Origin: a virus
IMG/VR virus record: IMGVR_UViG_3300017934_000004
Location: 1 to 35,311 of that record
Strand: one strand, 5' to 3'
Length of the DNA: 35,311 nucleotides
The notes under the pieces were generated by a model. The model was not told the origin of the DNA. It did not search any database and worked only from the letters and a program-made list of their open reading frames with translations. A program made the position numbers and the translations under genes. Below are positions 3,552 to 35,311 of the stretch, piece by piece (positions within the stretch are counted from its first letter, which is position 1; every line of letters starts with the position of its first letter).

Positions 3552-3559
3552 GAAATACA

Positions 3560-7807: not shown

Positions 7808-8416
7808 ATGAAATCCACCGTGATAGCGGAAATGCTCGGGATCCTCGGCCGTGCCGAGGCTTCCCGAGCACGGAATGAGCTGCCGGCATTCGCGCAACTG
7901 CGGAGCACGCTCGCGGCCGCCTTTGCATTGGGTTTATACACAGACGCGGATCTTGATGTTTCTGTTTTCATTGACGCGCTAGAGCGAGCGCAGTCGGCGG
8001 CCGAGGTTATGATGCCGGCCGCCGCCATCCGCCAGAAGCTAGAGCCGCTCACGGAAGACGAGGCAACGGGTGCGACCGGTATCGAGCTGCAGACCTATCC
8101 GCCGGCGGTCGAAATCCTCCCGATGGCTCTGGCTGAAGCGCAACAGAGTGAGGCGCCGCCGGCGCCGGCCGCTTTGCCTGCGCACGTTATTAGCGTTCTC
8201 ATCGGTATTCTTGACGCGATCGATGAGGCGCAAACATTGGACGACGTAGCGAGGGGCGTCGCCGTGGCACGTCAGTTTTTACACGATGCCGCGGGCACCA
8301 GTGGAATCCGTAAACCCGAGGCGCCGGCGGCCGATCAAACCGCGCCGGCGGAAACCGACCAGGCCGAAGGCGCATCGGCGCCCGAAGTCGAGGCCGAAAA
8401 CGCAGGGGGTAATTAG
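7808..8416 (+). CDS. Acidic Ala/Glu/Asp-rich helical protein (scaffold-like by position and composition)
   Basis: In-frame ATG at 7808 of track ORF 7664..8416. 202 aa, strongly acidic. Lies directly upstream of the basic membrane protein and the capsid-like gene. Confidence 0.5.
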   Translation: MKSTVIAEMLGILGRAEASRARNELPAFAQLRSTLAAAFALGLYTDADLDVSVFIDALERAQSAAEVMMPAAAIRQKLEPLTEDEATGATGIELQTYPPAVEILPMALAEAQQSEAPPAPAALPAHVISVLIGILDAIDEAQTLDDVARGVAVARQFLHDAAGTSGIRKPEAPAADQTAPAETDQAEGASAPEVEAENAGGN

Positions 8417-9307: not shown

Positions 9308-10057
9308 ATGCACGCGAAACAATTCGATTTCCGTAAACGGCCAACCCTCGAACAGTTGGCCGCGTGGCTTGAAACGCACACGATTGGAGGCGGGGCCTAT
9401 GGCCCCAATCCCAATCAGAACCCCAGCGGCCAGATTCTCGACGCGACCGAGGCGCAGGGCCGCAACACGAACTCGATCATGGAGGGCTGGGTCGATCGTG
9501 GTCCCTGGCAGTACTGGGATACGATTCCATTTATCGCCGGCGCGCAGGTAGCACAAAGCTACTCGCCGTTTTCGGTGCCGATCGGCCAACAGGATCCGAT
9601 CACGAACACCACGAAAACCAAACTGCAGACCAACCTGCAGCGTGGCAACCAATTCCCGCCGCCGAAATGCCTGCTGCTCATGGCAATCGGCTTTTACTTC
9701 GATCCGACCTGGGCGCTTTCCGATATCCAGGCAGTTTTGAACGCATGCTATATGCAGTTCAAAATCGACGACAAGATTTTCCACGAGGGTTTTCTGTGGG
9801 ACTTCCCGCCGGGCGGTGCGATCACCGGCTTTACGCAAAACTCGGGCGATTCGACTTTCACGCTCGGACTGCCGGCGCCGCAGTACCAACGCCGGTATGG
9901 TGATTGGGCGAAGTACATCGCGCCGATTCAGCAATTCTCGATGGACCTGATTTTCGGCGGTGGCGGCGTCGCCATCCCGACGGTAGGCGTCGCCGAGGGG
10001 CCGAATAACTACCTCATCGTGCAGCTCGACGGCCTGACCGATCGGTCGGTACAGTAG
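9308..10057 (+). CDS. Putative major capsid-like beta-sandwich (jelly-roll-like) protein
   Basis: Strong SD aagggag 8 nt upstream. 249 aa, beta-rich. Followed by an 8-bp stem-loop. Has a shorter paralog at 26847..27398. The capsid role is inferred from position, expression signals and strand pattern only. Confidence 0.55.
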   Translation: MHAKQFDFRKRPTLEQLAAWLETHTIGGGAYGPNPNQNPSGQILDATEAQGRNTNSIMEGWVDRGPWQYWDTIPFIAGAQVAQSYSPFSVPIGQQDPITNTTKTKLQTNLQRGNQFPPPKCLLLMAIGFYFDPTWALSDIQAVLNACYMQFKIDDKIFHEGFLWDFPPGGAITGFTQNSGDSTFTLGLPAPQYQRRYGDWAKYIAPIQQFSMDLIFGGGGVAIPTVGVAEGPNNYLIVQLDGLTDRSVQ

Positions 10058-10813: not shown

Positions 10814-11188
10814 ATGTTCGAGGGACTCCGACAAGCCGATGCTGTGCTCGACGCCTGCGGGCGTGAAGTCGCGCCGCCGGGCTACAAGTTTGTGGACCTT
10901 CCTTATGTCATTCCACAGAAAGCGACGTTTACCAGTGGCGGCCCGACGCCGTTTCAAATCCGCGTGAAAAACAACGGGCTCACGGCGTTCCGCTGTAAGG
11001 GCATCGTGATCGATTGCATCTTACCGATCCGTATAAAGTGGCCGTCGGGCCGCTATCTCGCTCAGGGGCCGAGCTGGCCGGGCTCGGCTGGCTCGCCCAT
11101 CGGCGCCGGTGGAAACTTGATCGCGCTGAACGAGGAAGTCGAGATTGAAAGCGGCGCGAATATCGTCATCGAGGTTTCGCAGCCATGA
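10814..11188 (+). CDS. Truncated beta-sandwich domain protein (paralog of the N-terminal domain of 13942..14937, lacking the last strand)
   Basis: Roughly half of aligned residues are identical to 13942 aa 8-135 (VLDACGR..PPGY..VDLP, F-x-C-[KR]-G, IRI[KR]WP.GRYL.QGP, IALxxExEIExGAxIxIE). It ends at IEVSQP, before the IQFWGV strand. Confidence 0.65.
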   Translation: MFEGLRQADAVLDACGREVAPPGYKFVDLPYVIPQKATFTSGGPTPFQIRVKNNGLTAFRCKGIVIDCILPIRIKWPSGRYLAQGPSWPGSAGSPIGAGGNLIALNEEVEIESGANIVIEVSQP

Positions 11189-12315
11189 CCGAAATAGTAG
11201 ATTCCTTCGGCCTGTACGTGCTTACCTCGGTGAGCCCTGGCGCGAGCCAGAACTCGCTTACCACGTTTTGGAATGCGATCGGGCCTGGTGGTTTCACTAT
11301 GGGCGTGCAGGCTGGCGCCGGCGACCGTGGCAATCCGGCGCTTTATCTTCCGTTCGGCGCCGCGATTTGCAAAACAGTTTCGCATCAGCCGACATACACG
11401 CTCGGCCTCCGCGTTTCAATGAGCTGCGTCGCCGGCGTCGGCGGCGGATCTTCTTTTCTTCAGTTCTGCAACTGCGGTTTCGCGCTCTGCTCTCTCCGCG
11501 TGAACCCCGATGGCTCGATTCTGGTCTACGGAAACAATGTCGGTAGCACTGTGATTTTCACGGCGCCGGCGGGCACCTTGACGGCGGCGACGCAAACCTA
11601 TCTCGAATTGACGGCGACCGTCACGGCCGATGTGCTCGGCGACATGAGCGTAACGGCCGAGGCTTGGGTCAACTCAGTTTCGATCGGCAGCGGATCCGCT
11701 GCGCTCGGCCGGAACATCAGCACGCTCAAAAATGCGGCTGCGAATTTCAACCAGATTTTCATTTTTTCCGGCGTCGCGACGAACGGCCAGGCGTTTGTGT
11801 CCGACCTGTACCTAAACAATGGGCAAGGGCCGACGAACACCGGCCGGCTCTCGCTTTTGCCGCCGAATAATACGGCGCCGTTTGTGATCGTTGAGCCGCT
11901 TGTACCTAACGCTGACACATCGCCGCTCAATTGGACGCCGCTCGCGCCTGGCCCGCACTTCAGCGAGATCAACGAGGTTCCCGCCGACGGCGATGCGTCT
12001 TACAACTTCGCGGCGGCCGCGGCAGCCGGCACGATCGACAATTACCGCTGGCAGCCGATCTCTACTTTTGTAGGAACCGTGCAATCGGTGCAGCTCCGCT
12101 ATCAGGCGCGCTCGACCGCGGCCGGTCCGGCCGGCTATCGTTCGACTGTAGGAATCGGCGGGATCGAGGCGACGGGACAAAAAGCCGGGCTCTGTAGTTC
12201 CTATACTTACCAGGGCTCGCAGACATTCGACCTTGATCCGCGTACCGGGCTGCCCTGGGCACAGCCGAATTTTAACTTGAAACCGTTCGGCGTCGAAGTG
12301 GTGGCACTGCCATGA
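11185..12315 (+). CDS. Fibre/spike-like protein, LamG/concanavalin-like N-terminal domain (inferred)
   Basis: ATGA overlap at both ends. 376 aa, beta-rich, Gly/Asn/Thr-rich. Composition is typical of phage receptor-binding proteins. No direct motif proof. Confidence 0.5.
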   Translation: MTEIVDSFGLYVLTSVSPGASQNSLTTFWNAIGPGGFTMGVQAGAGDRGNPALYLPFGAAICKTVSHQPTYTLGLRVSMSCVAGVGGGSSFLQFCNCGFALCSLRVNPDGSILVYGNNVGSTVIFTAPAGTLTAATQTYLELTATVTADVLGDMSVTAEAWVNSVSIGSGSAALGRNISTLKNAAANFNQIFIFSGVATNGQAFVSDLYLNNGQGPTNTGRLSLLPPNNTAPFVIVEPLVPNADTSPLNWTPLAPGPHFSEINEVPADGDASYNFAAAAAAGTIDNYRWQPISTFVGTVQSVQLRYQARSTAAGPAGYRSTVGIGGIEATGQKAGLCSSYTYQGSQTFDLDPRTGLPWAQPNFNLKPFGVEVVALP

Positions 12316-13955
12316 GCCTGCTGTACGACGACGATTTCCAGAGCTATGCAGTCGGCGCATTCCCGCCTTATGGAAACCTGTTTAATATCGCGATTATTGC
12401 GCCGAAGATCGCAAACAGTGTCCCGCCTGGTGGCGTTTTTGGTGCCGCCAAGTACGTTAACATGGCCTCGCTGCCGAGCCTCATCTGGCCGACGACGACA
12501 CCTTCGACGGCACTACCGGCTTACTCTGAATTTTCCGTTTTCCAGCACGTGCTCATCCTGGGCGGCCAGGGGAGCGATGAACAGGGCGCGATTTTGCAGT
12601 TCAATTGCAACCTAAGCCCATTCGCAGGCATAAGCCTCGCTGCGCTGCGCGTTCTCTCCGATGGAACTCTCGCATTTACGGCACCGCAGAGCTCGGCCTT
12701 TTCTCCGAATCAGTTTGTTTCAAACGATTCGATTCTGGTCAATGCCTGGTACTCGATCCAGACCAACGTTCGGTTTTTCGCGGCCGGTGCATTCGTCGGC
12801 GTCGATGTCGAGGTAGCGATCAATAACAAGTCGGTTTTTGCCGGCAGTTTCGTGACCACTCAAACGGTGGCATCGCTGCCGGCCCTATTCGTAAACAATC
12901 TAATTTTCGGTGGACTCGGCGGCGGCTGCGCTTATGGCCGTATCACCGTTTCTGATACAATCCTCCCGATCGGCGCCGATCCCCATGCCGGCACACCCGA
13001 CGTGCGTGTGACGCAAGGCGCGATCGAGCTCATACTCGCGGCGTCTGGTGGCCTGCCGGTGCCAGTGTGCCCTATCGGTGGCGGTAACGCGACGGTCGGG
13101 CAACTCTACAACAAGACATTGACCGCAAGCGGCGGCATTCCGCCTTACACCTGGAATGTAACCGGCCTGCCGCCCGGCATCACATTCAATCCGGTAAGCG
13201 GGCAATTGCTCGGGATCCCGACCACGCCAGGCACGTTTACATACCTGGCGACGGTTACCGACCTGGCGACGGCGATGGGCTCGGTTAACTGCACGATTGT
13301 AGTCGTCGCCTCGCTCACCGTCGATATTCAGTTTTGGGGCGTGCTCCGTTTCCTGGTGCCGGTTGGATCTGGCGACGGCGACGCCGCTGAGTATTCGGCG
13401 ATCGGGCGCCAGGCATTACGCAGCCTGGCCGCGATCGCGCTTAGGGCGGCCTCAGTGCTGCTCGACCAGTTGGCGCGCACCCTGGCGCCGGCGAGCTCAG
13501 GGCGCCGCCTGCAGCTCGCCGCGTCGCCGGCGTCGGCCGTTAAAATTCCGATCCCTATGCCGGCCGCTCTGGAAACTGCAGCGGATAAGTGCAACTTGCG
13601 ACCGTTTGTGCAACCGGTTGCACAAACGACGCGAGAAACAAATGAGTTAGGTATATCCTTAACACTATCATCGCCTCGCATTCGCTTTTCTGGCGGTTTC
13701 AGTTTTTCTTGGCGGCCATTCGTGCAACCGGTTGCACAAACGACGCGAGAAACAAATGAGTTAGGTATTCCCTTAACACTATCATCGCCTCGCATTCGCT
13801 TTTCTGGCGGTTTCAGCTTTTCTTGGCGGCCATTCGTGCAACCGGTTGCACAAACGACGCTAGAAACAAACGGCTTAGGTATTTTACCCTGCCATTTGGC
13901 AGGGGCTCATAAAACGCCGACGTTTTTAGGGGAGGGTATCAGTGGCGCAGCTTAG
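12312..13955 (+). CDS. Fibre/spike-like protein with Ig-like (He_PIG-type) domain; 3' third reads through a 114-bp repeat array
   Basis: Residues 248-332 (13053..13307), containing GQLYNKTLTASGGIPPYTWNVTGLPPGITFNPVSGQLLGIPTTPGTFTY, match the putative Ig domain consensus. VDIQFWGVLRF at 13320..13352. No stop until 13953. GC3 falls from about 75 to about 38 percent inside the repeats, so the real C-terminus is uncertain. Confidence 0.55.
   Translation: MSLLYDDDFQSYAVGAFPPYGNLFNIAIIAPKIANSVPPGGVFGAAKYVNMASLPSLIWPTTTPSTALPAYSEFSVFQHVLILGGQGSDEQGAILQFNCNLSPFAGISLAALRVLSDGTLAFTAPQSSAFSPNQFVSNDSILVNAWYSIQTNVRFFAAGAFVGVDVEVAINNKSVFAGSFVTTQTVASLPALFVNNLIFGGLGGGCAYGRITVSDTILPIGADPHAGTPDVRVTQGAIELILAASGGLPVPVCPIGGGNATVGQLYNKTLTASGGIPPYTWNVTGLPPGITFNPVSGQLLGIPTTPGTFTYLATVTDLATAMGSVNCTIVVVASLTVDIQFWGVLRFLVPVGSGDGDAAEYSAIGRQALRSLAAIALRAASVLLDQLARTLAPASSGRRLQLAASPASAVKIPIPMPAALETAADKCNLRPFVQPVAQTTRETNELGISLTLSSPRIRFSGGFSFSWRPFVQPVAQTTRETNELGIPLTLSSPRIRFSGGFSFSWRPFVQPVAQTTLETNGLGILPCHLAGAHKTPTFLGEGISGAA
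13594..13885. repeat. Tandem repeat, 114-bp unit, about 2.6 copies
   Basis: Units 13608..13721 and 13722..13835 are 111/114 identical. A third partial unit starts at 13836. Each begins with the palindrome GTGCAACCGGTTGCAC. Confidence 0.9.
13608..13851. promoter_or_regulatory. Three copies of the 16-bp palindrome GTGCAACCGGTTGCAC, 114 bp apart
   Basis: Exact copies at 13608..13623, 13722..13737 and 13836..13851, upstream of the gene starting at 13942. Confidence 0.7.
13887..13926 (+). other. Two short hairpins between the repeat array and the 13942 start
   Basis: ccctgcc-attt-ggcaggg (13887..13904) and aaaacg-ccga-cgtttt (13911..13926), followed by a ggagg SD. Confidence 0.4.
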
Positions 13956-14937
13956 AATGCAACCGCTACGTGAGGCCGATATGGTGCTCGACGCGTGCGG
14001 CCGGCGGCAACCGCCGCCGGGTTACCGTTGGGTCGATTTACCGGCCGTGCTGCCGTTCAACTGGTCACAATTCGCGACCGTAGCGCCAGTGACGCCGGCG
14101 CAGGGACGCGTTGCCAACAATTCCAAGGCGAATTTTATTTGCCGCGGCGTGATGATTCAGAGCCCGGTCGGTGTGCGGATCCGCTGGCCTGGCGGCCGCT
14201 ATCTCTCGCAAGGGCCTACTTGGGTCGGCGTGCCGACCGTGCCGGGCAATCCGATCGCGACCGGCGGAAGTATGATCGCGCTCGACAGCGAGCAGGAAAT
14301 CGAGCGCGGCGCAAAAATCGCGATCGAAATGTCGGGCGGCACTGCCGGCCTGGTTAATATACAATTTTGGGGCGTGCGACGGTACTTACTTATGCAACCG
14401 AAAAACGGCGGCGCCGGCAGCTCGCCGGCGATGATTCCGGATCCGATCGACGAGCTGGAAGCACGGCCACGCTATCGGTGCGGGCCGCCTCAGAACATCA
14501 TGGCGCCCGAGTGGTACCTCGGAAACCAATGCACGCCGGAAACGCCGGCAGGTTACGAAGATGAGCCCTTTACATTCTTCTCGCCGCCGATCACCGTGCC
14601 CGTCGCAAAGCAGAATTTCAATAACGCCGTGATCGTGCCCGGCGGCGACGATGTGATTATCCGGCGGTACCGGGCAATCACCGATTACAGCGGGCTCGGT
14701 GGAGCCAGCTCGACGATTCCGGTATTCTCGCTGCGGCTGCCTAATGGCTATTCAGTCACCGGCGGCGATCTTGTTCCGACGCCGTTTCTGTTCTGGATCC
14801 CGATGTTTCCGACGATCCGCCTGCATCCCGGCGATCGGATCATACTCGACGTGGCCGACATGCAACCGGTCGGTACGGGCTCGGTGACGACGACGTTTGA
14901 ATTTGAGGGCGTGAAACGGAGGAAACTCATAGTATGA
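13942..14937 (+). CDS. Two-domain beta-sandwich protein (domain family F-x-[CL]-R-G .. F-x-G-x-[KR])
   Basis: GTG start 6 nt after ggagg. Domain 1 has FICRGV, IRIRWPGGRYL, AKIAIEM, VNIQFWGVRR. Domain 2 has VIIRRYRAI, FSLRLPNGY, LHPGDRIILDV, FEFEGVKRR. Confidence 0.7.
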   Translation: MAQLRMQPLREADMVLDACGRRQPPPGYRWVDLPAVLPFNWSQFATVAPVTPAQGRVANNSKANFICRGVMIQSPVGVRIRWPGGRYLSQGPTWVGVPTVPGNPIATGGSMIALDSEQEIERGAKIAIEMSGGTAGLVNIQFWGVRRYLLMQPKNGGAGSSPAMIPDPIDELEARPRYRCGPPQNIMAPEWYLGNQCTPETPAGYEDEPFTFFSPPITVPVAKQNFNNAVIVPGGDDVIIRRYRAITDYSGLGGASSTIPVFSLRLPNGYSVTGGDLVPTPFLFWIPMFPTIRLHPGDRIILDVADMQPVGTGSVTTTFEFEGVKRRKLIV

Positions 14938-18413: not shown

Positions 18414-19478
18414 ATGGCAATCGCTCCAGTAGCTCACGCGACCGCGGCGGGGCCGAATAGTGCGACGACACCAGCGCAGGACACGAGCACTGCGAATCTC
18501 ATAGTCCTTTCGGCCTTAACCGGGCCGCTCGCGGTGGGGCCGGCCGTGCAGGATAGTAACCATAACATCTGGACGCCGCTCAACGGAAACCGCGGCGGCG
18601 GATTTTTCTGGAATCAGTTTTTTTACTGCATTAATCCAGTTGTCGGGCCGGGCCACACGTTCACCATAAACGATGCCGGCGGTTTCGGCTCTATCCAGAT
18701 GACGGCCTGGAGTGGCGCCGCGGGAGGCTTCGACTTACAAGGGGCTGATTTTGGCGGATCGACAACGCAGCCACTCACTCCGAGCGTAAACGGATGCCTC
18801 GTTGTCGCTTCCTACGTCGGCAGCAATGACATAACAAGTGTCAATCTTCCCTTCGCTCTCAGCGATACCGAGCCGTTTACCGGCGGCGTCAATTACGCCT
18901 CGGGCACGGCTTTCGTCATCCAAACGACGGCCATCCTGGCGCAGTGTACGTTTAACGGAGTCGGCTCAGGCGGTCCGCTGTCAATTGCATCTTTCAAACC
19001 GTCGGCAACGGCTACCACGATCACGCCACCAGCAGGCGCACTCGCGACGGCCACATTTGCGCCACTGCTCACCGATACGATCACGCCAGGCGCCGCGGCT
19101 CTCGCGATCGCGACCTTTGCGCCAGCACTGATCGGCGGATTATTGGTGCCGACCGGTGCGCTCAGCCTGCAAGGTTTCGCGCCGGCTCTGACGCGCACAA
19201 TACCGGTGCCAGCGGGCGCGCTTACGCTCGCGACCTTCGCCCCGCTGCTGGGCGAGGTAGTCGGGCCAGTGCCGCCGGCTCATCTGGTGCTGACAACCTA
19301 TGCGCCGAAACTGGTGTTTTCATTTGGGCCGGCTGCCGGCAATCACGCCGCCGCCTGGTGGTGGAGCGGCGCGGCGGCGCGCATGATAAACGATGCCGGT
19401 TTTCAACTGCTGGTGGAGCCGCACTTACAGAATGAGAATTACACCGGCGAGCCGCAACCGGATGAGGGCGCGCCATGA
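18414..19478 (+). CDS. Fibre-like protein with five 20-aa tandem repeats
   Basis: 354 aa. Globular N-terminal domain, then 5 x (I/V)xPxAGALxLATFAPxLxxx. Confidence 0.65.
   Translation: MAIAPVAHATAAGPNSATTPAQDTSTANLIVLSALTGPLAVGPAVQDSNHNIWTPLNGNRGGGFFWNQFFYCINPVVGPGHTFTINDAGGFGSIQMTAWSGAAGGFDLQGADFGGSTTQPLTPSVNGCLVVASYVGSNDITSVNLPFALSDTEPFTGGVNYASGTAFVIQTTAILAQCTFNGVGSGGPLSIASFKPSATATTITPPAGALATATFAPLLTDTITPGAAALAIATFAPALIGGLLVPTGALSLQGFAPALTRTIPVPAGALTLATFAPLLGEVVGPVPPAHLVLTTYAPKLVFSFGPAAGNHAAAWWWSGAAARMINDAGFQLLVEPHLQNENYTGEPQPDEGAP
19020..19319 (+). repeat. Five in-frame 60-bp tandem repeats inside 18414..19478
   Basis: Units start at 19020, 19080, 19140, 19200 and 19260. The first two share atcacgcca and all share the ..gcgc.ct....c.....c.t..gcgcc core. 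Confidence 0.8.
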
Positions 19479-19506
19479 TTGCGAAGGCGATTTCGAGGGC
19501 TGTTTC

Positions 19507-20121
19507 ATGAACCTTGCCGCCATCAGGCCGCGCCGGCAAATGCCGCACCCGGTACTTTACGCGCCGCGGCGCCGCGGCGGCCTGGCCGGCTACGGCCTAG
19601 GCGTCGTGCAAGTGCTTGCACCGTCGCAAACGGCTACGATCGCGAGCACGATTCAGCAAGTCGAGGGCTACTATCCTGGCTCGCTCGCGTATCAGAATAA
19701 CAACCCTGGAAACCTGGTCTACGTCGGCCAGACAGGGGCCTCGCCCGGCGCCGGCGGGTTTGCGCAATTCCCGAGCTACTCGGCCGGCCTGCAGGCGCTC
19801 GACGATCAGATACAACTCTATGCCGCCCGCGGCATGACGATTTCTCAAATGATGAACACGTACGCGCCGGCCTCGGCCGGCAATAATCCGACAGCGTACG
19901 CGAACCAAATCGCCGGCGCGCTCGGTGTGGATCCATCAACCTCGCTGCTCGACCTGGCTGGGTTTTCGACCAGCTCGCCGGCGCCGCTGCCTGCCCTGCC
20001 CGATGTCTCGACGTGGGCGAGCTGGCTACCGGACTTTTCGAGTATCGACCCGTCGAGCCTGGCAATGATCGCCGGCGGCCTGCTGCTCGGAATTGTTGTG
20101 CTCAACGTCACCGGCGACTAG
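19507..20121 (+). CDS. Tail-anchored protein with NNNPGN motif domain (possible cell-wall-active or virion-associated protein)
   Basis: In-frame ATG at 19507. Basic leader ..RRRGGLAGYGLGV. YQNNNPGNLVY..GFAQFPSYSAGLQAL..YAP..NNPTAYANQIA. C-terminal helix LAMIAGGLLLGIVVL. Confidence 0.55.
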   Translation: MNLAAIRPRRQMPHPVLYAPRRRGGLAGYGLGVVQVLAPSQTATIASTIQQVEGYYPGSLAYQNNNPGNLVYVGQTGASPGAGGFAQFPSYSAGLQALDDQIQLYAARGMTISQMMNTYAPASAGNNPTAYANQIAGALGVDPSTSLLDLAGFSTSSPAPLPALPDVSTWASWLPDFSSIDPSSLAMIAGGLLLGIVVLNVTGD

Positions 20122-23239: not shown

Positions 23240-23746
23240 TCATCGCCTAGCCTTCAAATCCTCGATCGCCACCCGAGGGCGATCGCCGCGACCGTCGAGA
23301 ATCAGCTTGTCCAGTTCTTCCATGCCCGGAATGCTGCGGCTCGCAACGTCGGGCAACTGCTTGAGCACGCGCGAAGCCTGCGCCGGCCGGCGTCCTAGAG
23401 GTTTCAGCATCGGCTTACAGGTAAACGCGGCCGGATCCGCCTCGATTTGCATCTTGAGCTGGGTGATGAGCTGCGCTAGTTCCGGATCGGCCACGGCGGC
23501 GCGTTCTATGAACTGGCACGAATTGATAACCGTCGTGTGATGTCGGCCGATCGCACGGCCGACCTCCGACAAGGCCATGCCGGCGCCGACCAAGAGATAC
23601 GCGACTAAGTGCCGGGGGTGTGCGATATGGCGGGCATTGCTGCGACGCGTGAGGGTGCCCGGCACATAACCATACGCTTGCTCCACCAGGGCGAGGATCG
23701 CCGCTGCATTCGTTTTCTGCATTCGTGCCGGCGTCAAGAATTGCAT
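23240..23746 (-). CDS. DnaA domain IV-like helix-turn-helix DNA-binding protein
   Basis: RHIAHPRHLVAYLLVGAGMALSEVGRAIGRHHTTVINSCQFIE matches the DnaA C-terminal pattern (R..a.pRqiamYL.r.lt..Sl.eIG..fG.rdHtTV.ha...i). ATG at 23746 follows an agagg SD. No AAA+ domain is present. Confidence 0.6.
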   Translation of the reverse strand: MQFLTPARMQKTNAAAILALVEQAYGYVPGTLTRRSNARHIAHPRHLVAYLLVGAGMALSEVGRAIGRHHTTVINSCQFIERAAVADPELAQLITQLKMQIEADPAAFTCKPMLKPLGRRPAQASRVLKQLPDVASRSIPGMEELDKLILDGRGDRPRVAIEDLKARR

Positions 23747-23756
23747 AAGCGGGCCT

Positions 23757-24011
23757 CTAATCCGGATAGCGGGTGCGGGTCGGCGCCGCGGGACCATCGA
23801 CCTTGAACGTAGCGAAGTCGATAGCACGGTTCGAGTTCGACCATTCACAATTTGCCAGCTCAGGGTTTGGATCGCCGGCCATCTCCAAGGTGCAGGGCGC
23901 CTGGCGGCTGGTCACTAAGGCGCACTGCCTGCCTCCGGAAACATCATCGGGCAACGGCACAAGGATCCTCAGTAACTCATTCGCGCTTTTACCATAAAAC
24001 GGGCAAGGCAT
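23757..24011 (-). CDS. Hypothetical protein
   Basis: Strong SD aaggggga 5 nt upstream of the ATG at 24011. Confidence 0.55.
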   Translation of the reverse strand: MPCPFYGKSANELLRILVPLPDDVSGGRQCALVTSRQAPCTLEMAGDPNPELANCEWSNSNRAIDFATFKVDGPAAPTRTRYPD

Positions 24012-24029
24012 CGTTTCCCCCTTTTTCTA

Positions 24030-24203
24030 TCAGTTCGATTTGAAAAAACCAACGACGTGTTCGAGGCCTTCCGCTTTGAGTAAGTCGAGCCGGCCGGTTT
24101 CGCGCAGGTAAGCGGCGCGCCTAGTGCGCCAGTCTTTATCGTTCGGCTTTTCGTGTAGAGTAATCTTCGGCGCAGGCGCCATGGGAGTATGTTTGGATTT
24201 CAT
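24030..24203 (-). CDS. Small basic hypothetical protein
   Basis: ATG at 24203 forms an ATGA overlap with the stop of 24200..24535. Trimmed from track ORF 24030..24371. Confidence 0.4.
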   Translation of the reverse strand: MKSKHTPMAPAPKITLHEKPNDKDWRTRRAAYLRETGRLDLLKAEGLEHVVGFFKSN

Positions 24204-24535
24204 GGCCGTCGGTACTCCAAAAACCCGAGCTGGTGCCGGCCGCTCGCGCAAATGATCGGCAGCCGGCGCCGGCAGCTCGCCGGGCGGATCCACCCGCGGG
24301 GCTCGGACTCGATTTGCGGATCCCAACGGGCAAGCTCGCGCGCTGCCGTATCTACCTCGGCGTAGCACCATCCATCCTCGGTATGGTCAGGCGTTCGCAC
24401 CACTAGGCGCACATTGAACATTTGCAGACGCAGGAAAGCCTCGCGGCCGTCGGACAAGTGGCGGCGTGTGAACTTTTCGAGCCTGGCCGCGGCCCTTTGG
24501 AGCCACTTAAAGCTATAGACAAACTCGACGCTCAT
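24200..24535 (-). CDS. Hypothetical protein
   Basis: ATGA overlap with the upstream stop at 24532..24535. Confidence 0.5.
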   Translation of the reverse strand: MSVEFVYSFKWLQRAAARLEKFTRRHLSDGREAFLRLQMFNVRLVVRTPDHTEDGWCYAEVDTAARELARWDPQIESEPRGWIRPASCRRRLPIICASGRHQLGFLEYRRP

Positions 24536-24846
24536 GACCGGGCCGCCTTAGTGCGCGACCTGGCGCCGGCGGCCGCGATCGCCGCGGCGTTCGATCGACG
24601 CCGACGGAAGGGCAGCGGCGCCGATGGAATTCGACGAAATGCGTTCATGAGCGCGCCGGTTCTCATCTCATACGCAACCTCGGCATAGTCGAGCAGGTGC
24701 GCTAGGATTTCGGCGCAATTCGAGCAAAGCGGCGCCGTCCCGAGGGCCTTTTCTTGTGCTGGGCCGGCCCAACTGCAGCCATTGGCACACGCGCGATCGT
24801 AACTACAGCGGCAAATCTTACAACGTGGCATCAGATTTCCTTTCAT
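24532..24846 (-). CDS. Cys-rich small protein
   Basis: CKICRC .. C..GC .. C..C arrangement with a basic C-terminal tail. Confidence 0.5.
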   Translation of the reverse strand: MKGNLMPRCKICRCSYDRACANGCSWAGPAQEKALGTAPLCSNCAEILAHLLDYAEVAYEMRTGALMNAFRRIPSAPLPFRRRRSNAAAIAAAGARSRTKAARS

Positions 24847-25261
24847 CCAAGGCGGCCAGTATCGGCCGGCTCAAATCCTTGCGAGCTGCACGCGTTTCCG
24901 CGTGGTGTTTTTTGTCATAGTCCAGATGGCACCATTGGCACCAGGCGGCTAAGTTGTCGTCGCGATCGTCGCCCGAAACGTGATTACGGTGCGCGATCGT
25001 GAGCACGACGCGGATCCGCCGAGTTTTCCCGGCTGGTCGATCGCCGATGTATCGGCCTAATGTGTCGCGCCAGTGTTCGATAACTCCGTCCGTCCATGTT
25101 ACGGTTTGATCGAGCCAACAGCCGCCGATTCTAGTTACATCGGTGTGGTTTGGAATGTCGCAGGCCTCGCACTTGTTCCCAGCCCGCGCGAGGATCCGCG
25201 GCCGCGTGACCGTTCGCCAAATGCGGCCGTAATAGATGCGCAGCTCTTTTCTAATCGGCAT
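24818..25261 (-). CDS. HNH endonuclease
   Basis: CEAC .. LTIAHRNHVSGDDRDDNLAAWCQWCHLDYD (CxxC, H-N-H, CxxCH). ATG at 25261. The upstream part of track ORF 24818..25525 looks like non-coding read-through. Confidence 0.7.
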   Translation of the reverse strand: MPIRKELRIYYGRIWRTVTRPRILARAGNKCEACDIPNHTDVTRIGGCWLDQTVTWTDGVIEHWRDTLGRYIGDRPAGKTRRIRVVLTIAHRNHVSGDDRDDNLAAWCQWCHLDYDKKHHAETRAARKDLSRPILAALDERKSDATL

Positions 25262-25442
25262 GGTCGCGGCCGTACAAACTGCCGTCGGCGTGGATCCCTC
25301 TCGACACTGGAAGGCGTAACGATGTTGGCGCCGCGGGCTCGGGCCTGGTAGCGATCGCGAGCAGCGCGGCGATAATCCCGATGCCGGCATTTGAAACGGT
25401 GAAGCGTTCGGGCTCTTTAACGTGCGGCTCGTAGACGAGCAT
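25251..25442 (-). CDS. Possible small membrane protein
   Basis: In-frame ATG at 25442 of track ORF 25251..25517. Helix AGIGIIAALLAIA. GC3 about 70 percent. Fills the gap between 25495 and 25261. Confidence 0.3.
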   Translation of the reverse strand: MLVYEPHVKEPERFTVSNAGIGIIAALLAIATRPEPAAPTSLRLPVSRGIHADGSLYGRDHAD

Positions 25443-25494
25443 GAAAATTGAGCCGACTGCCCAACATAGAGGGCGACGATGTGCACTAGTTTTC

Positions 25495-26004
25495 TCATGG
25501 CAGCAACCCCGTCGCACATGTCCAATGCACCGGTACGGCGATCGCGCTATAGGCGAACTGCTGCCGGCACTTGTCTTGCTGTTCCTTATCCAAACCTGGC
25601 CCGAGGGCGACTAGGGTGTAAACGTCGCCCTGTTTTAGAAACTCCTGGCAGGCGGCGCAGCGCGATACAGGCACGCTCAGATAGGGGTGACCCGAGGGCA
25701 GGGGTTCGGACTTCCGGAGTATCGACATACGGCGCCATTCGTCGGGATTTGGGGCATTAGCGTTCACTGTGCCACGGCCGAGCTCGGTACCTGGTATCGC
25801 CTGGAGATTACCAGAGACAACGGCAGGCGCGAGCGCGCCGGGCCGCTGCCATTCTGGAATTTGCCAGGGGCCGACGGCCGGCGGTATGCCGCCCGGCGGA
25901 GCCTCGGGGCGCCGCGGAAGTACCTCGGGTGTGAGCCCGGCCGCCTCGGCTATTTTGCCGACCTGCACAATCCCGGTTTCGCGAGTGGTTTTATCTTCGG
26001 GCAT
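25495..26004 (-). CDS. Hypothetical Pro-rich protein
   Basis: ATG at 26004 preceded by an aggggga SD. 169 aa. Confidence 0.55.
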   Translation of the reverse strand: MPEDKTTRETGIVQVGKIAEAAGLTPEVLPRRPEAPPGGIPPAVGPWQIPEWQRPGALAPAVVSGNLQAIPGTELGRGTVNANAPNPDEWRRMSILRKSEPLPSGHPYLSVPVSRCAACQEFLKQGDVYTLVALGPGLDKEQQDKCRQQFAYSAIAVPVHWTCATGLLP

Positions 26005-26251
26005 CGCTTCCCCCTGTATTGGCAGGCCGTTCGCACCGGCAGGGCATACGATCGCAGGCCGGGCAGTTCATGCGGCCGATATTCGCCGAGCTGCCGACAA
26101 TTCGGGCGATGCGCAAGGCGGCGAGGATCACGGCCAGCTCATCGCCATCCGCCTGCAAATCGACGACGCGGCGATCGGCTACGGCCGGCAGTGGATCGCC
26201 AAGGTGCCAGATGACTACACCATCGGTATGTGGATCCCCAAAATAGATCAC
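25991..26251 (-). CDS. Hypothetical protein
   Basis: GTG at 26251 in a GTGA overlap with the recombinase stop, preceded by an aggggggg SD. Confidence 0.5.
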   Translation of the reverse strand: MIYFGDPHTDGVVIWHLGDPLPAVADRRVVDLQADGDELAVILAALRIARIVGSSANIGRMNCPACDRMPCRCERPANTGGSDARR

Positions 26252-26850
26252 TTCCCCCCCTTATCCTCGGCCTCGGCCAAAGTGCGGCCGACGACGCTTT
26301 TACTGGACTTCAATTCAGTAGCGATCTCGCGCAGGCTATAGCCGGCATCTCGCAGCTCGCGCACGCGTATCCTGTCGAGCACTGCCGGCCGGCGGCCGCC
26401 GATGACGCCATTCGCCCTGGCGCGCGCCAGACCGGCCCTAACGCGGGCCTGCATCGTTAGGCGTTCCTGCTGCGCGATAAATGCCGCAATCGCGATGAGC
26501 AGCTCGCCGGCAGGGCCGGCAGTTCTGAAATGCTCCTCGTTCATGCTCCATAACTGCACGCCGGAACTGCGCAGCCTAGCAATGAGCTCGAACGCGCTCG
26601 CAGGCCCGCGGCGGGTGAGCCGGCTTAGATCGAACACCAGCACGGTATCAAAGTCGCGCCGGGCCGCGTCCCGCATCAAAGCCTCAAGGCCGGGCCGCGC
26701 GGAGCTCGCGCCAGTGATTTCATCGGTGTAGACTGCGGCGACTTTCCAACTCATCGCCGCGGCGTATTTCCGAAGGGCGCGGACCTGGCTACTGAGGTTC
26801 TGCTTTCCGTCCGACGTGCTGATTCGGGCATAGACGCCTGCGGTTTTCAT
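26248..26850 (-). CDS. Small serine recombinase (resolvase/invertase family)
   Basis: N-terminal GVYARISTSDG (catalytic Ser context). D..LVFDLSRLTR. C-terminal HTH GYSLREIATELKSSKSVV. 200 aa. Confidence 0.9.
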   Translation of the reverse strand: MKTAGVYARISTSDGKQNLSSQVRALRKYAAAMSWKVAAVYTDEITGASSARPGLEALMRDAARRDFDTVLVFDLSRLTRRGPASAFELIARLRSSGVQLWSMNEEHFRTAGPAGELLIAIAAFIAQQERLTMQARVRAGLARARANGVIGGRRPAVLDRIRVRELRDAGYSLREIATELKSSKSVVGRTLAEAEDKGGK

Positions 26851-27398
26851 TGGAGCGCTAACACTCCCTGCAAGTAGAACCGCAAACCGCGCTCGGCCGC
26901 CAAGTCAAGCGCGTCGCCGGCAATCTCTAGCCTAAAATCGGATTGAGGCGCGATCGCAATTTGAGGCGCGATCGGTTGCCAGGCCGCCGAGCTAAACGCA
27001 TTCGGCGCCATCAGGGCCAGCGGCGCCGCGAAATAGGTCTTGCCGCCAATCACTAGCTGGCATTCAAACGCGTCAAGGATCCGCGCCGCCTCGGCGACCG
27101 GAATATCGCCGAGGCCGCTCCATCCGATCGAGCGAATAGCAAAATTCGTCGGGCTCGGTCCAGTGAAAAGTATCTCACGCGTTTCCTTGCCCGGCTGCAG
27201 CATGACGGTATCCCAGATAGACCAATCCTGCAGCCAGGAATCCGCCCAACCCTCAATGATTGGATTACGCGTGCGCATGCTCGCGATCGCGTCGGCGAAG
27301 TGCGGAAGCGGCGGCTGTACTAACTGCTCTGGCTTGACCGCGAGGGCCGCGGCCAGCATCGCAAGAAATGACCGACGGCTTACGGGCTCGATGCTCAT
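26847..27398 (-). CDS. Tat-signal-bearing short paralog of the capsid-like protein
   Basis: N-terminus MSIEPVSRRSFLAMLAAALAV (SRRxFL twin-arginine pattern). IIEGWADSWLQDWSIWDT, FAIRSIGW, CQLVIGGKTYF, IAPQSDFRLEI, FYLQGVLALQ align with IMEGWVDRGPWQYWDT, LLMAIGFY, CYMQFKIDDKIF, IAPIQQFSMDLI, YLIVQLDGLTDRSVQ of 9308..10057. Confidence 0.65.
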   Translation of the reverse strand: MSIEPVSRRSFLAMLAAALAVKPEQLVQPPLPHFADAIASMRTRNPIIEGWADSWLQDWSIWDTVMLQPGKETREILFTGPSPTNFAIRSIGWSGLGDIPVAEAARILDAFECQLVIGGKTYFAAPLALMAPNAFSSAAWQPIAPQIAIAPQSDFRLEIAGDALDLAAERGLRFYLQGVLALQ

Positions 27399-32159: not shown

Positions 32160-33725
32160 CTAAAAACCGCCATCGCTTGCGCGACCATTCGGGGCCGCCG
32201 ATGCCGGCAGGCCTGGCGCGGGCTGCTGAATGTCGCCGGCGGTTTCCTCATCCTCACTAAACTCGCTCGGCTCGCTTGACAAGAATTGCGCGATGAATTG
32301 CAAAACCTGTTCTTTCGGTGCGAGCTGCGCGAGCTGGCCGCGGAGCAGCTCGGTCGGCGCCTCAGTCTTACGCAGCTCGATCACATCGGCAATTGTTTGC
32401 GGGTGGAGCTGCTTTAGTCCATCGTAGGCCCGGCGGCCGTATTCTTGTATGAACCAATCGCGGAACTCCATGCCGGTAACGCCTCGTACAAAATAGTTTG
32501 AGAGAAACGGCGTGACCTCATCGAACATCGGGCCGAATTGTTCACTGATATTCGCGATCATCTCTTGAATCTCCTCGGGGGTTTCTTGCTCTGCTGCTGC
32601 TGTTGCACTCGTCGGTAACGCGCCGGCGCCGTTGGCGACCTCGGCTGTGCGGCGTGCCGGCTGCTTGACACCGCTACGCATCGCGATCGCCTGCATCACG
32701 GGGCCTGCGGCCTCGATTAGTTTTTCGCCAATTCGTACGCCGACCTCCGGCCACTCAATTTTTCCGTCGGTTGTCACCTTGCCGCCGCGGCCGAAAATCG
32801 TACCGAGTACATCTTTTGCCTCGGCGAGCTCTCTTAACTCCGCGAGCAGTGAGCGCGGCGCCGCGACCGTTCCTTTATTCGCCTCGGTGAGTTTTAACAG
32901 CAACTCGTTTTGGAAGCGGCGCGATTCGATGAGCTCGGCGCGCAAATGATCGTCGCCGCCGCCGCCATTTTTACTTTCAAGTAGCTTCAGTACGATCGCC
33001 TCTAGGCCGGCGCTGGTTTTCGGCTGCTCGCGTTGAATCGCCTGCACGACCTCGGCCGCGATCGTCGAGGCCTCATCTTTACGCGCACCGGGTAGCAACT
33101 CGCGCACCAAGGCGATAACTTTATCCTCGCCGGCGGCTGCCGGTGCGCCCTGCGCGGCTGCCTGTTCCGCGGCGGCCTCTTGTCTTGCGAGGGCCTGCAG
33201 CTTCGGTTTCGCCCATGCCCACTCTTTATTATTGTCGCTGTCGAGCCATTCGCCGAAAGGAATCCGCGGCGGAAAGTCGTAATTCAAAATCTTAAAATAC
33301 TCCTGCCGTATGTTCGTCGTTAACCTGGTCGTCGGATTGTAGCGGACCAGGGTAAGTTTATAGCCGCCGCTGCCGCCATAAGAGGCGCGCATGATTTCGT
33401 CAGGATCCGTCGGCCTGGTGAACTTTTGTATGTTGAAATCGTTCCCAGTGCGCCCGCGGTCGATCACCGGCGCGGTGCGGAACAAGTACATGAACAGGCC
33501 GCCCTTTTCCCAATCGAGCGGATCGTATGCGCGTTGCAGTGCGAAAATATCCAAGTGGCTGTTGTCGCTGTCGAGCTCGGCACCAGTCCGTACAGCGGCC
33601 TCTAACTCGGGCGACGTTTCACCAGGCGCGGCATAATTCGTGTTGGTGCGCGGCCGGCCTCGGCCTCGCTTTGGTGCGGCAGCCTCGGACGGTTCCTCGA
33701 TCGGTGTAGTTTTTGTGCGTGCCAT
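32160..33725 (-). CDS. AT-hook-containing 521-aa protein with long helical and acidic regions
   Basis: KRGRGRPR AT-hook at aa 19-26. Ala/Glu-rich coiled-coil centre. Acidic C-terminus. Function unknown. Confidence 0.6.
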   Translation of the reverse strand: MARTKTTPIEEPSEAAAPKRGRGRPRTNTNYAAPGETSPELEAAVRTGAELDSDNSHLDIFALQRAYDPLDWEKGGLFMYLFRTAPVIDRGRTGNDFNIQKFTRPTDPDEIMRASYGGSGGYKLTLVRYNPTTRLTTNIRQEYFKILNYDFPPRIPFGEWLDSDNNKEWAWAKPKLQALARQEAAAEQAAAQGAPAAAGEDKVIALVRELLPGARKDEASTIAAEVVQAIQREQPKTSAGLEAIVLKLLESKNGGGGDDHLRAELIESRRFQNELLLKLTEANKGTVAAPRSLLAELRELAEAKDVLGTIFGRGGKVTTDGKIEWPEVGVRIGEKLIEAAGPVMQAIAMRSGVKQPARRTAEVANGAGALPTSATAAAEQETPEEIQEMIANISEQFGPMFDEVTPFLSNYFVRGVTGMEFRDWFIQEYGRRAYDGLKQLHPQTIADVIELRKTEAPTELLRGQLAQLAPKEQVLQFIAQFLSSEPSEFSEDEETAGDIQQPAPGLPASAAPNGRASDGGF

Positions 33726-33869
33726 TTTTCCGGAGCTCTCCTGTCTGTTTGCCTGGAATCGTACCGCAAAACAGCGGCGTTTTCAATTCGGCTCAATATC
33801 TTAGTGCCACTAACCCCCTACTTGCGCGCCAAAATCGGGATGGTGTATGCTCAGCCTTAATCTGGAGAA
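33726..33869. promoter_or_regulatory. Divergent intergenic region (probable promoters for 33725 (-) and the long rightward block)
   Basis: Positional inference only. A ggag SD precedes the ATG at 33870. Confidence 0.3.
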
Positions 33870-35141
33870 ATGTTGCAAGACATCGAACCAACTGCCGGCA
33901 ATCGGCTCTATGACGTGAGCGCACCAGCGGCCACGGCGCCGGCCGATAGTGCGCCCGCGCGGCGCCTGGCGATCGTGCCGAAGGATCCACAGAGCACGAA
34001 ACCGCCGGTAGCTGGCGCGCGCATGGAGCGGCGCACCGTTCCCGATGATGACGACCAGGCGACGGCCGAAACCATATCAATGATGTGCGACTACATCCGG
34101 GCCGGCGTAAAGGATCCGCTCTGCGTCGCGTGGGCCGAGTGGGCTCTCGATTGTTTCGGTATGGGCGTTGATGACGCCCGCGCGAAATTTTGGGCCGTGT
34201 TCTGGTGTTTGAAACATGCGGTGAAGTACCGACGCGATGAGCCCGAGCTGTTCCGAATCGGCGAACGCAGTGCGCGTGATTTGCTAACCGCGCCGAGTGT
34301 GTTAGTGCGGCAAGCGGCGCCGGCCGAGGATTGCGACGGTTTTACGATGCTCGCATGCACACTGCTGCAGATCCTCGGTGTGCCGGCATTCATTGTCACG
34401 GCGAAAGTGGATCCGGGTGAGCCTGGCCGCTGGTCACATGTATTCGCGATGGCCGATGTTGCCGGTGTCGGATTGTGTTCGCTGGATGGTTCGCACGGCA
34501 AGGCGCCCGGCTGGATGGTTCCGCGATCGCACATTTTCGGTTACCAGGTTTGGGATCTTAATGGCCGCCCGATTCATAAAAAATTGCCCGTCGTGCAGCC
34601 GCGGCTGCAGGGTTACGAATATCGGCCGCGAGGCATGGGCGCGCAGCCTGGTGCGGTTCGCCGGCGCCGCGGCGTGGGCGATACCTGCGCGGTGGATCCT
34701 ACGACGGGCGTACTGTCGGATCTCACGACGGGCCTACCGTGCGGAACGAGCACCGGCCCGCTTTCTGCGCTGCCATCATCGGGCGTTTGCGTCAATGGTT
34801 TTGATACCGGCTCTGGCGATCCGTGCCTCGCGCCGACGGGCCCGCCAGCCGTAATCACTCCGATCGCCGGCACGCCAGCACCGAATCCGGCGAATGTTCC
34901 GACTGCAACGCCGAGCACACTACAGTCTATTATCAATAATCTTTTTGGTGCGGGCACCAAGATCGCCACCATCGCGACGGCGCCGGCCGGATCCACTATT
35001 TCGCCGACGGGCGCCGTCACGATCGGCGGCGCGCCGCTCATGGCTTCACTCGGGAATCTGCTGCCCTGGCTGCTGGTTGGCGGAGTGATTCTTTTTGCCG
35101 TGAATGCGGCGAGCAGCGCACCAAGTCGAGGGCGGCACTAG
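33870..35141 (+). CDS. Membrane-anchored transglutaminase-like (papain-fold) cysteine peptidase
   Basis: EDCDGFTMLACTLLQILGVPAFIV .. RWSHVFAM .. SLDGS fits the Cys-His-Asp transglutaminase-core pattern. RGMGA (34629..34643) and RGVGD (34668..34682) follow the domain. Gly/Pro/Thr-rich linker. C-terminal helix LPWLLVGGVILFAV. Confidence 0.65.
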   Translation: MLQDIEPTAGNRLYDVSAPAATAPADSAPARRLAIVPKDPQSTKPPVAGARMERRTVPDDDDQATAETISMMCDYIRAGVKDPLCVAWAEWALDCFGMGVDDARAKFWAVFWCLKHAVKYRRDEPELFRIGERSARDLLTAPSVLVRQAAPAEDCDGFTMLACTLLQILGVPAFIVTAKVDPGEPGRWSHVFAMADVAGVGLCSLDGSHGKAPGWMVPRSHIFGYQVWDLNGRPIHKKLPVVQPRLQGYEYRPRGMGAQPGAVRRRRGVGDTCAVDPTTGVLSDLTTGLPCGTSTGPLSALPSSGVCVNGFDTGSGDPCLAPTGPPAVITPIAGTPAPNPANVPTATPSTLQSIINNLFGAGTKIATIATAPAGSTISPTGAVTIGGAPLMASLGNLLPWLLVGGVILFAVNAASSAPSRGRH

Positions 35142-35170
35142 TGTACGTCAGCTCCGCAAATGCGCTGCCG

Positions 35171-35311
35171 ATGTTACCGCGCGTGCGGAATCTGCAGCGG
35201 CCGGCCCGGCCCCGGCTGCAACTTATCAAACCGTCAACACTAGCAACACGGCGCAGCGTGCCGTCGTTTTCGGCCGGGCGGCGGCACGTGGGGTGGCAGC
35301 CGCTACTAGTA
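35171..35311 (+). CDS. Probable 5' end of the gene that continues as 14..745 across the junction
   Basis: ATG at 35171 is in frame (87 nt) with the ORF at 14 once the 67-nt overlap is collapsed, with no stop between. The start choice (ATG 35171, GTG 14 or ATG 149) is unresolved. Confidence 0.4.
   Translation, partial: MLPRVRNLQRPARPRLQLIKPSTLATRRSVPSFSAGRRHVGWQPLLV
35245..35311. repeat. Terminal direct repeat, copy 2
   Basis: Identical to 1..67. Confidence 0.9.

Follow-up and report, generated by a model that had tools for sequence, protein, structure and literature searches.

A virus-encoded transglutaminase-fold enzyme fused to a leader-bearing membrane module: a candidate leader peptidase

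Which reaction is catalyzed by a membrane-anchored, transglutaminase-like enzyme encoded at the head of a block of viral membrane-protein genes, and on which substrates? We addressed this question for the gene at positions 33870-35141 of IMG/VR virus record IMGVR_UViG_3300017934_000004, of which the whole analyzed stretch of 35,311 nucleotides is called the window below. The reading that we favor, at a probability somewhat above even, is that the product is a virus-encoded transglutaminase-fold cysteine leader peptidase fused to one of its own substrates, with cleavage as its presumed activity. The gene and the parts of its product are laid out as follows (aa, amino acid positions).

33870-35141, plus strand: enzyme gene, ATG start, 423 aa, candidate leader peptidase (open reading frame [ORF] map, alignment, AlphaFold2 [AF2], Foldseek)
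33870-34031, plus strand: N-terminal variable region, aa 1-54, differing in length and sequence in the alignment
34032-34619, plus strand: catalytic transglutaminase-like core, aa 55-250 (AF2, Foldseek)
34332-34334, plus strand: TGC codon of Cys155, the predicted nucleophile
34437-34439, plus strand: codon of His190
34485-34487, plus strand: codon of Asp206
34629-34643, plus strand: RGMGA, aa 254-258, additional copy of the motif that P0002 and P0003, the closest relatives, alone have in common with the window enzyme
34659-34682, plus strand: RRRRGVGD, aa 264-271, the family-wide G-x-G motif and predicted self-cleavage site
34683-35039, plus strand: Gly/Pro/Thr/Ser-rich linker with Cys and conserved pre-anchor region, aa 272-390, homologous to stand-alone genes at the related loci L027 and L087
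35040-35138, plus strand: C-terminal transmembrane helix, aa 391-414, and tail SSAPSRGRH with a basic end (hydropathy, AF2, family conservation)

Fold, triad and family of the enzyme

The start codon is backed by the N-terminus MQDIEPT, which is conserved in P0002 and P0003. The ORF map places the gene first in the rightward block, with the minus-strand block ending at 33725, and all the motifs named in the original prediction, which had been made from the sequence alone, are present (DCDGF at aa 154, WSHVF at 188, LDGS at 205, RGMGA at 254, and RRRRGVGD at 264). The prediction had put both G-x-G copies after the core, where they indeed lie; only RRRRGVGD proved to be family-wide, RGMGA being confined to the closest relatives. 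The C-terminal anchor that it had proposed appears as a hydrophobic stretch at about aa 389-419 by hydropathy and as a helix at aa 391-414 in the AF2 model, and it is conserved in the family. No hydrophobic signal peptide was found at the enzyme N-terminus by hydropathy, and the predicted local distance difference test (pLDDT) score fell below 50 at aa 1-34 and 40-45. The segment holding both motif copies (aa 248-271) was likewise modeled as disordered at pLDDT <50, and aa 293-353 were disordered too.

The AF2 model was built with the family alignment and compared with PDB structures by Foldseek. Over the core (aa ~55-245), mean pLDDT in 10-residue blocks was 84-98, exceeding 90 over most of it. 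A structure prediction was the check proposed for an aligned Cys-His-Asp triad, and the model is consistent with one as far as invariance and placement on secondary structure can tell: Cys155 is the first residue of helix 155-168 (region pLDDT >90), His190 opens strand 190-197, and Asp206 lies one residue past the end of strand 201-205, all three being invariant. The proposed transglutaminase/papain-like fold was borne out as well, with all eight PDB matches at E <= 1e-3 belonging to the transglutaminase-like superfamily, including the putative proteases 3kd4 and 3isr, the transglutaminase 4xz7, TglA (9crn), and LapG (4u65_E), each of these five at a Foldseek probability of 1.00. Lower matches comprised Rad4/XPC, arylamine N-acetyltransferases, PeiP/PeiW, TgpA, TG2, and PNGase. 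TM-scores normalized to the query were low (0.26 or less) because the core accounts for less than half of the 423-residue query. Among BFVD structures, the top four matches are unnamed, and we drew no reading from them.

Sequence profiles placed the enzyme outside curated families, with no match in Pfam (to E = 10), PHROGs (to E = 1), or NCBIfam (to E = 0.1). The transglutaminase core family PF01841 was matched by 5 of 34 homologues below the curated cut-off (best E = 0.0064), and neither the window enzyme nor any of the 34 homologues had a Pfam match to Peptidase_C39 or BTLCP/DUF920. When the trimmed core was searched against PDB sequences, the sole match was human TG2, weak at E = 0.57, with the family Cys falling on residue 277 in GQCWVF, which we take to be the catalytic nucleophile of TG2. 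Identities from the profile search of PDB sequences were set aside, the only matches (E = 0.6-0.9) being to TG2 and to spurious helical-repeat designs. The transglutaminase-like fold of the core is thus well supported at the level of the predicted model, and the enzyme represents a family of its own, new within a known superfamily (Pfam clan Peptidase_CA).

This family is large. Homologues of the enzyme fell into 64 clusters in a word-indexed protein collection, all of them metagenomic, none with a Pfam domain, and many on contigs of 32-42 kb. A profile of the catalytic region recovered 2739 representatives at 50% identity with E <= 1e-3, 1142 with E <= 1e-10, and 416 with E <= 1e-30; distant members retain the core, the G-Phi-G motif (Phi, hydrophobic residue), the linker, and the anchor. 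Across the 34 homologues (30-84% identity), E153, D154, C155, D156, G157, F158, S189, H190, V191, and D206 are invariant, as are G210, G214, W215, P218, and the two glycines, G268 and G270, of the R-G-x-G-D motif. In a more diverse alignment (mean column identity 26%), five of these positions (D154, C155, H190, D206, and G268) show no variation, and at least 90% of sequences keep G270. To judge by sample names, the family appears to come mostly from soil and peat metagenomes.

The G-x-G signature and its possible cleavage

The first 67 bp of the window are repeated exactly at its end (1-67 = 35245-35311). With this terminal direct repeat, the window represents a complete genome assembled as a circle of 35,244 bp, so that the genes at its left end directly follow the enzyme gene. 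A signature, (A/P/G)-Y-(V/L)...[R/K]-G-[L/M/V/F]-G-[D/Q/A], separates the enzyme domain from its membrane module and returns at the N-termini of 2-5 (usually 3-4) co-oriented proteins with C-terminal anchors, encoded directly downstream. In the window, these and a further candidate substrate are encoded as follows.

35141-35311 continuing at 68-745, plus strand: first leader-bearing membrane protein gene, product MYVSS..., GTG start with a 1-base overlap with the TAG stop of the enzyme gene
71-85, plus strand: PRGVGA motif of this first neighbor, followed by a GGCGQTCV motif and a C-terminal anchor
747-1532, plus strand: membrane protein MAYVNITRPSGGLNGRGLGA... (MAYVN...RGLGA), with a second site, RGRGMGY, and a C-terminal anchor
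2164-2472, plus strand: 102-aa membrane protein MAFVRRRGRGMGD..., with a C-terminal anchor ending in GGRRR
2701-3186, plus strand: 161-aa membrane protein MPYV...RNRGRRGVGD..., with a C-terminal anchor
3186-3551, plus strand: 121-aa membrane protein MAYTMRRGMGDY... (MAYTMRRGMGD), with a hydrophobic C-terminal segment and a basic tail
8416-9249, plus strand: protein with a protamine-like, K/R/H-rich N-terminus of about 120 aa, a conserved hydrophobic domain, and an internal LGMGDYQ (9055-9066)

The first neighbor resumes at 68-745 because the window ends in the terminal repeat; its GTG start overlaps the enzyme stop codon, coupling the two genes, and its orthologues start with MYVSS or MYR... 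and carry RRGMGA or RGLGQ. All the neighboring products end in a hydrophobic helix, followed in most by a short basic tail. The peptide VRRRGRGMGDTAAC represents a leader site as a candidate substrate sequence. From its sequence, the 8416-9249 product may act in DNA condensation as a membrane protein and may also be cleaved as an additional substrate; [LW]-G-[MV]-G-D-Y-Q is retained in 12 of 12 examined orthologues.

Cys pairs were observed right after the motif, as TC...LPC...GVC...DPC at 34683-34850 of the window, in the neighbors too, and as CxxYDxxGxC in homologues P0150-P0206. As a sequence pattern, these pairs suggest disulfide loops and an oxidizing compartment, although no classical signal peptide is present in any of the proteins. 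A separate observation concerns a candidate substrate gene (3535-4647) of L092, a 34.7-kb relative with gene order and leaders as in the window genome. Its product has three tandem motif copies near the N-terminus (VRGLGQ, RRRGMGQ, and HRGLGQ), a repetition that suggests multiple or alternative processing sites.

In two relatives, the enzyme gene is split. At L027 (3869-4543, 224 aa) and L087 (367-945, 192 aa), the enzyme ORF stops just after the core, and the ORF that follows overlaps or abuts it, from 4530 in L027, starting MPYVRPNRRMHFPRGMGD, and from 945 in L087, starting MPFIRTARPLHP...RRGMGQ (MPFIRT...RRGMGQ). Both second ORFs are homologous to aa 250-423 of the window enzyme (E = 2e-8, in a small database) and end in a similar anchor, and the one from L027 carries an MPYV...RGMGD leader. 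The end of the core in fused enzymes, GLHGY(V)R...RRGxGD, resembles the leader form M(A/P)YVR...RRGxG. Together, the leader-like end of the core and the split genes indicate that the C-terminal part of the enzyme is one more leader-bearing membrane protein, with the catalytic domain placed upstream of its leader.

This arrangement bears on the possibility that the enzyme is a cell-wall endo- or isopeptidase, virion-associated or acting in lysis, that cuts peptidoglycan stem peptides, with the G-x-G motif unrelated to its activity and simply common to all viral membrane proteins. The phage pseudomurein endoisopeptidases PeiP and PeiW have the same fold (Foldseek E = 7e-3 to 2e-2), and membrane-anchored muralytic enzymes are common in membrane-containing phages. 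Yet PeiP and PeiW rank under the protease-like matches, there is no signal peptide by which the enzyme would reach the wall, its catalytic domain stands upstream of the motif, in leader position, and the part after the motif exists as a free-standing, leader-bearing gene in L027 and L087. The genome also encodes a separate, anchored candidate for wall degradation, although two lytic activities can coexist:

19393-20121: lysozyme/transglycosylase-like protein with a C-terminal anchor (PHROG matches down to E = 7.5e-19)

Its L092 orthologue (18789-19319) matches the SLT family PF01464, and on these profile matches the 19393-20121 product is a muralytic enzyme separate from the transglutaminase-fold enzyme. 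The original prediction had considered a lysin role equally possible; given the lysozyme/SLT-like protein, the domain order, and the split genes, we rate it lower and regard it as quite unlikely. As a side observation, the N-terminus of the lysozyme-like protein reads LYAPRRRGGLAGYGLG, a segment that is missing from the L092 orthologue and that might be a divergent leader; no further orthologues were found within the fetched locus flanks.

That the enzyme and the membrane-protein leaders have the motif in common, as originally proposed, was upheld on a wider set of genomes. The predicted proteome of the window has 8 occurrences of G-[LMVFI]-G-[DQ] where 1.65 are expected, none of 2000 shuffles gave as many, and three of the eight sites are N-terminal RRG[MV]GD motifs in adjacent small membrane proteins. 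We collected related loci from ENA/Logan, IMG/VR, GTDB, and JGI metagenomes and scored 62 dereplicated loci on stop-to-stop frames, requiring a start codon, an optional A/P/S/G, Y/F, G-Phi-[GAS]-[DQAESN] within 80 aa, and a hydrophobic C-terminus. The signature was present in 112 of 1035 same-strand frames within 7 kb downstream and in 16 of 4100 other frames (odds ratio 31, p = 3e-62), and every locus with at least 4 kb of downstream sequence (27/27) carried 1-5 signature frames, most often 4. Enzyme and neighbors also covary at the last position of the site: where the enzyme's own site ends in D, neighboring sites end in D 18 times and in Q 0 times, and an enzyme site ending in Q goes with 33 Q and 15 D sites among the neighbors (Fisher p = 3e-7 counted by site and 7e-4 counted by genome, in statistics that ignore phylogeny).

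With positions numbered as for a protease site, the 112 frames have R at P4 in 64, one of L/M/V/F/I at P2, G at P1 in 102 and otherwise S or A, and Q (42), D (33), or A (31) at P1', with 6-66 residues (median 18.5) from the start of the leader to the site. A reading of the arginine-rich leaders as Tat or Sec signals was rejected, since most are without a hydrophobic h-region after the arginines.

The residues at P1' are central to the possibility that the enzyme modifies the motif without cutting the backbone, by Gln deamidation, by transamidation or cross-linking with a partner in the capsid or membrane, or by acyl transfer of the arylamine N-acetyltransferase type. Transglutaminases and arylamine N-acetyltransferases with the same fold and triad are among the structural matches, Gln is the commonest residue after G-x-G, and the alternation of D and Q would make sense for a site whose final state has to be acidic. 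Against these points, the Asp and Ala residues at this position cannot be substrates of a transglutaminase or deamidase, the motif lies exactly at the module boundary of a natural gene split or fusion, which is a better fit to a cut site, and the two glycines are the only positions that are small or near-invariant, as is typical of protease sites. We therefore judge a non-proteolytic modification to be decidedly unlikely. Gln cross-linking after G-x-G as a general mechanism was discarded, Asp and Ala being equally common there.

The leader could alternatively be a targeting or assembly signal, for membrane insertion, particle recruitment, or capsid binding, that stays in place throughout or is cleaved off by a host protease; the enzyme would then have another job and would have acquired the signal by fusion. 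In keeping with a recognition peptide, the MYV/MAYV/MPYV N-terminus is conserved apart from G-x-G, at variable spacing from it, and the fusion or fission event could be incidental. On the other side, the signature is internal in most family members, which fits an endopeptidase site better than a signal needing a free N-terminus. The enzyme is also always first in the signal-bearing gene block and, in the window, translationally coupled to the next gene, and its own motif covaries with those of its neighbors. An invariant triad, moreover, calls for a substrate that is conserved too, and the motif is the sole such candidate. We consider a pure signal function unlikely, and any explanation other than those discussed here highly improbable.

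Under the favored reading of a leader peptidase, the enzyme would be synthesized as a fusion to one of its own substrates, and enzyme and substrates would lie on the same face of the same membrane, as their common architecture suggests. Its cuts would fall at G-Phi-G or beside it, made in trans and perhaps also in cis. If papain-like enzymes, whose general S2 preference is the basis for a P2-hydrophobic register, are taken as a guide, the hydrophobic residue would occupy S2, with Gly at P1 and D/Q/A at P1'. Cutting would take leaders of 6-66 residues off the membrane proteins, self-cutting would part an enzyme of about 29 kDa from a membrane module of about 15 kDa, and the invariant LGMGDYQ of the protamine-like membrane protein would possibly be cut too. 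The purpose would probably be the maturation or activation of virion or envelope membrane proteins in assembly, on which we can only speculate. A conserved recognition motif common to several co-encoded precursors was found, as in the leader-peptidase class, and no other protease domain was detected among the 37 window proteins (larger ORFs) scanned against Pfam.

Several points weigh against this reading. Proteins with the transglutaminase-like fold also include transamidases, acetyltransferases, isopeptidases, and deamidases, and some are inactive, so that the triad leaves the reaction unfixed. In the AF2 model, the motif is disordered (pLDDT <50) and is not docked into the active site. The conserved M(A/P)YV at the extreme N-terminus suggests a leader function of its own, beyond cleavage. 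The covariation statistic takes no account of phylogeny, and the data include the 15 D-type sites in Q-type genomes. There is a hint of a conflict in topology, with no signal peptide and yet Cys pairs after the motif that point to an oxidizing compartment. In the clade of L008 and L013, the enzyme has R-S-G-L-S-G in place of G-x-G. Finally, cleavage, by this enzyme or any other, is something that we infer.

The genome around the enzyme

Searches of GenBank phages (DNA and protein) and PLSDB plasmids found no relatives of the genome. Among GTDB species genomes, there were only two contigs of metagenome-assembled genomes, one from a Gammaproteobacteria bin and one from a Ca. Sulfotelmatobacter bin, which conflict in phylum; relatives of the enzyme were also present on seven IMG/VR viral contigs. 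Acidobacteriota are candidate hosts. The genome contains no recognizable terminase, portal, or packaging ATPase (a Walker-A motif search was used for the terminase and packaging ATPase) and no Walker-A or ABC protein, the window contains no tRNA genes, and a literature search for a described soil virus group matching the lineage found nothing relevant. One protein of the genome has relatives among the hypothetical proteins of tailed phages. Most likely, the element is a virus, possibly one containing a membrane, whose lineage has yet to be described. Other features of the window are listed below.

3548-4894: gene of a 448-aa basic protein, directly before the glycosyltransferase cluster
4897-7465: gene cluster encoding GT4-like glycosyltransferase, methyltransferase, and GT2 glycosyltransferase, located downstream of the genes of the Ser/Thr/Pro-rich membrane proteins at a distance of about 1.3 kb
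12312-13955: He_PIG immunoglobulin-domain protein (Pfam scan)
23240-23848, minus strand: DnaA C-terminal-type helix-turn-helix protein (Pfam scan)
24818-25525, minus strand: HNH-like protein, recognized by eye, without a Pfam match
26248-26850, minus strand: serine recombinase (Pfam scan)
32160-33725, minus strand: 521-aa gene ending the minus-strand block at 33725
33726-33869: divergent intergenic region of 144 bp between the minus-strand block and the enzyme gene

No promoter-like site was found on the plus strand of 33726-33869 by a consensus scan. The minus-strand genes at 23240-27398 suggest integration or multimer resolution together with replication control, and the glycosyltransferase cluster may have the linkers of the Ser/Thr/Pro-rich membrane proteins as its targets. 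Within the He_PIG protein gene, a 114-bp tandem repeat at 13608-13883 (2.4 copies, 95% matches) encodes repeated C-terminal segments. The products of 10814-11188 and 13942-14937 have a paralogous N-terminal domain, ADAVLDACGR..PPGY.(F/W)VDLP...RI(K/R)WP(S/G)GRYL(A/S)QGP(S/T)W, seen by eye in the translations, and may be spike or vertex components.

Within the lineage, conservation is highest for the product of 9308-10057, which has at least 312 homologues, 120 of them listed at 56-100% identity; homologues also start with MAY.... Its AF2 model has a beta-rich domain of moderate confidence. Foldseek returned no significant match for this model, and jelly-roll capsid proteins (SPMV, SPV1, PCV2, and SH1) were enriched among its matches, which is suggestive only of a candidate major capsid protein. 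On L093, a 71-kb contig, the capsid-candidate gene and the block downstream of it are preceded by unrelated PIN, DUF4279, and CLC fragment sequences and not by the membrane-protein block; this arrangement may reflect integration or rearrangement of the copy, or else chimerism of the assembly.

From these features, a wider proposal can be made only tentatively, and we hold it to be possible rather than probable: the enzyme and leader pair would be the maturation system that characterizes a large uncultivated lineage of circular bacterial viruses of roughly 33-45 kb, processing virion membrane and core proteins at G-Phi-G sites. The traits of such a lineage would include a small jelly-roll-like capsid protein, many tail-anchored membrane proteins that may be glycosylated, and a DNA-binding membrane protein with protamine-like features; a recognizable terminase or packaging ATPase would be missing. 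If true, this would be a bacterial-virus counterpart of adenovirus-type maturation that operates via a different protease fold. The family sits in genomes of almost wholly uncharacterized sequence, in which the signature can annotate several genes per genome, and processing, if confirmed, would mark virion components in this virus group. A new site-specific protease, R-G-Phi-G / D,Q, for biotechnology is a further possible outcome.

Comparison with known systems

Among bacterial viruses, the maturation proteases known so far are, to our knowledge, the prohead proteases of tailed phages, which are serine enzymes. Our literature searches and the Pfam, PHROG, and NCBIfam scans turned up no described transglutaminase-fold cysteine protease that trims a set of viral membrane proteins, and literature searches on transglutaminase-like proteins in membrane-containing phages, on TglA, and on the BFVD accessions returned nothing relevant.

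The precedent offered in the original prediction was that of adenovirus, African swine fever virus, and poxvirus proteases, which stands for the class of site and fails for the fold, LapG and C39 being closer precedents. Adenain is a viral cysteine maturation protease that cuts (M/L/I)XGX-G or XGG-X sites in many virion precursors, including membrane-lytic and DNA-condensing proteins, and the window genome offers a parallel, with membrane proteins and the protamine-like LGMGDYQ protein as candidate substrates. Adenain, pS273R of African swine fever virus, and I7 of poxviruses have the clan CE fold. These enzymes of eukaryotic viruses differ from the window enzyme in the order of catalytic residues, which is His-Asp/Glu-Cys and not Cys-His-Asp, and in the register of the hydrophobic residue in the site, and no clan CE enzyme was present among the listed structural matches.

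PeiW and PeiP of methanogen viruses are virus-encoded, have the same fold and triad, and are structural matches of the window enzyme. They cut cell-wall isopeptide bonds and have wall-binding repeats, and, unlike the window enzyme, they are without a membrane anchor, a motif of their own site, or an associated set of leader-bearing genes. With Transglut_core (PF01841), the family has in common a Cys at a helix start followed by His and Asp, along with the 5 of 34 sub-threshold matches; it differs in that no member reaches the gathering score and the window enzyme has no match, and it stands as a separate family yet to be curated.

C39 peptidases are papain-related and take Gly-Gly (Gly-Ala, Gly-Ser) N-terminal leaders off several co-encoded precursors. 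The window system resembles these double-glycine peptidases in tolerating G, S, or A at the last small position. In contrast to the window enzyme, they are fused to an ABC exporter, act on longer amphipathic leaders of secreted peptides, and have Gly where the window site has a hydrophobic residue at P2, and the window enzyme has no C39 match in Pfam.

LapG is a transglutaminase-like Cys-His-Asp protease that cuts LapA between Ala108 and Ala109, near the N-terminus, with LapA encoded near the protease gene, and its C135A mutant is inactive. LapG and the BTLCP (DUF920) family have the fold class and the Cys-His-Asp triad in common with the window enzyme, and 4u65_E is among the top structural matches, whereas no sequence relationship was detectable with Pfam in the window enzyme or the 34 homologues. 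LapG is soluble, periplasmic, and Ca-dependent, is under the control of LapD and c-di-GMP, and acts on a single giant adhesin. The window enzyme, by contrast, is viral, is fused to a membrane module via its own site, has several small candidate substrates with G-Phi-G in place of A-A, and has no signal peptide. A leader peptidase with a small-residue site and substrates encoded nearby is thus already known from LapG and C39; what is new here is the viral setting, the fusion to a substrate, the set of several membrane proteins as substrates, and the site itself, at which the enzyme would presumably cut.

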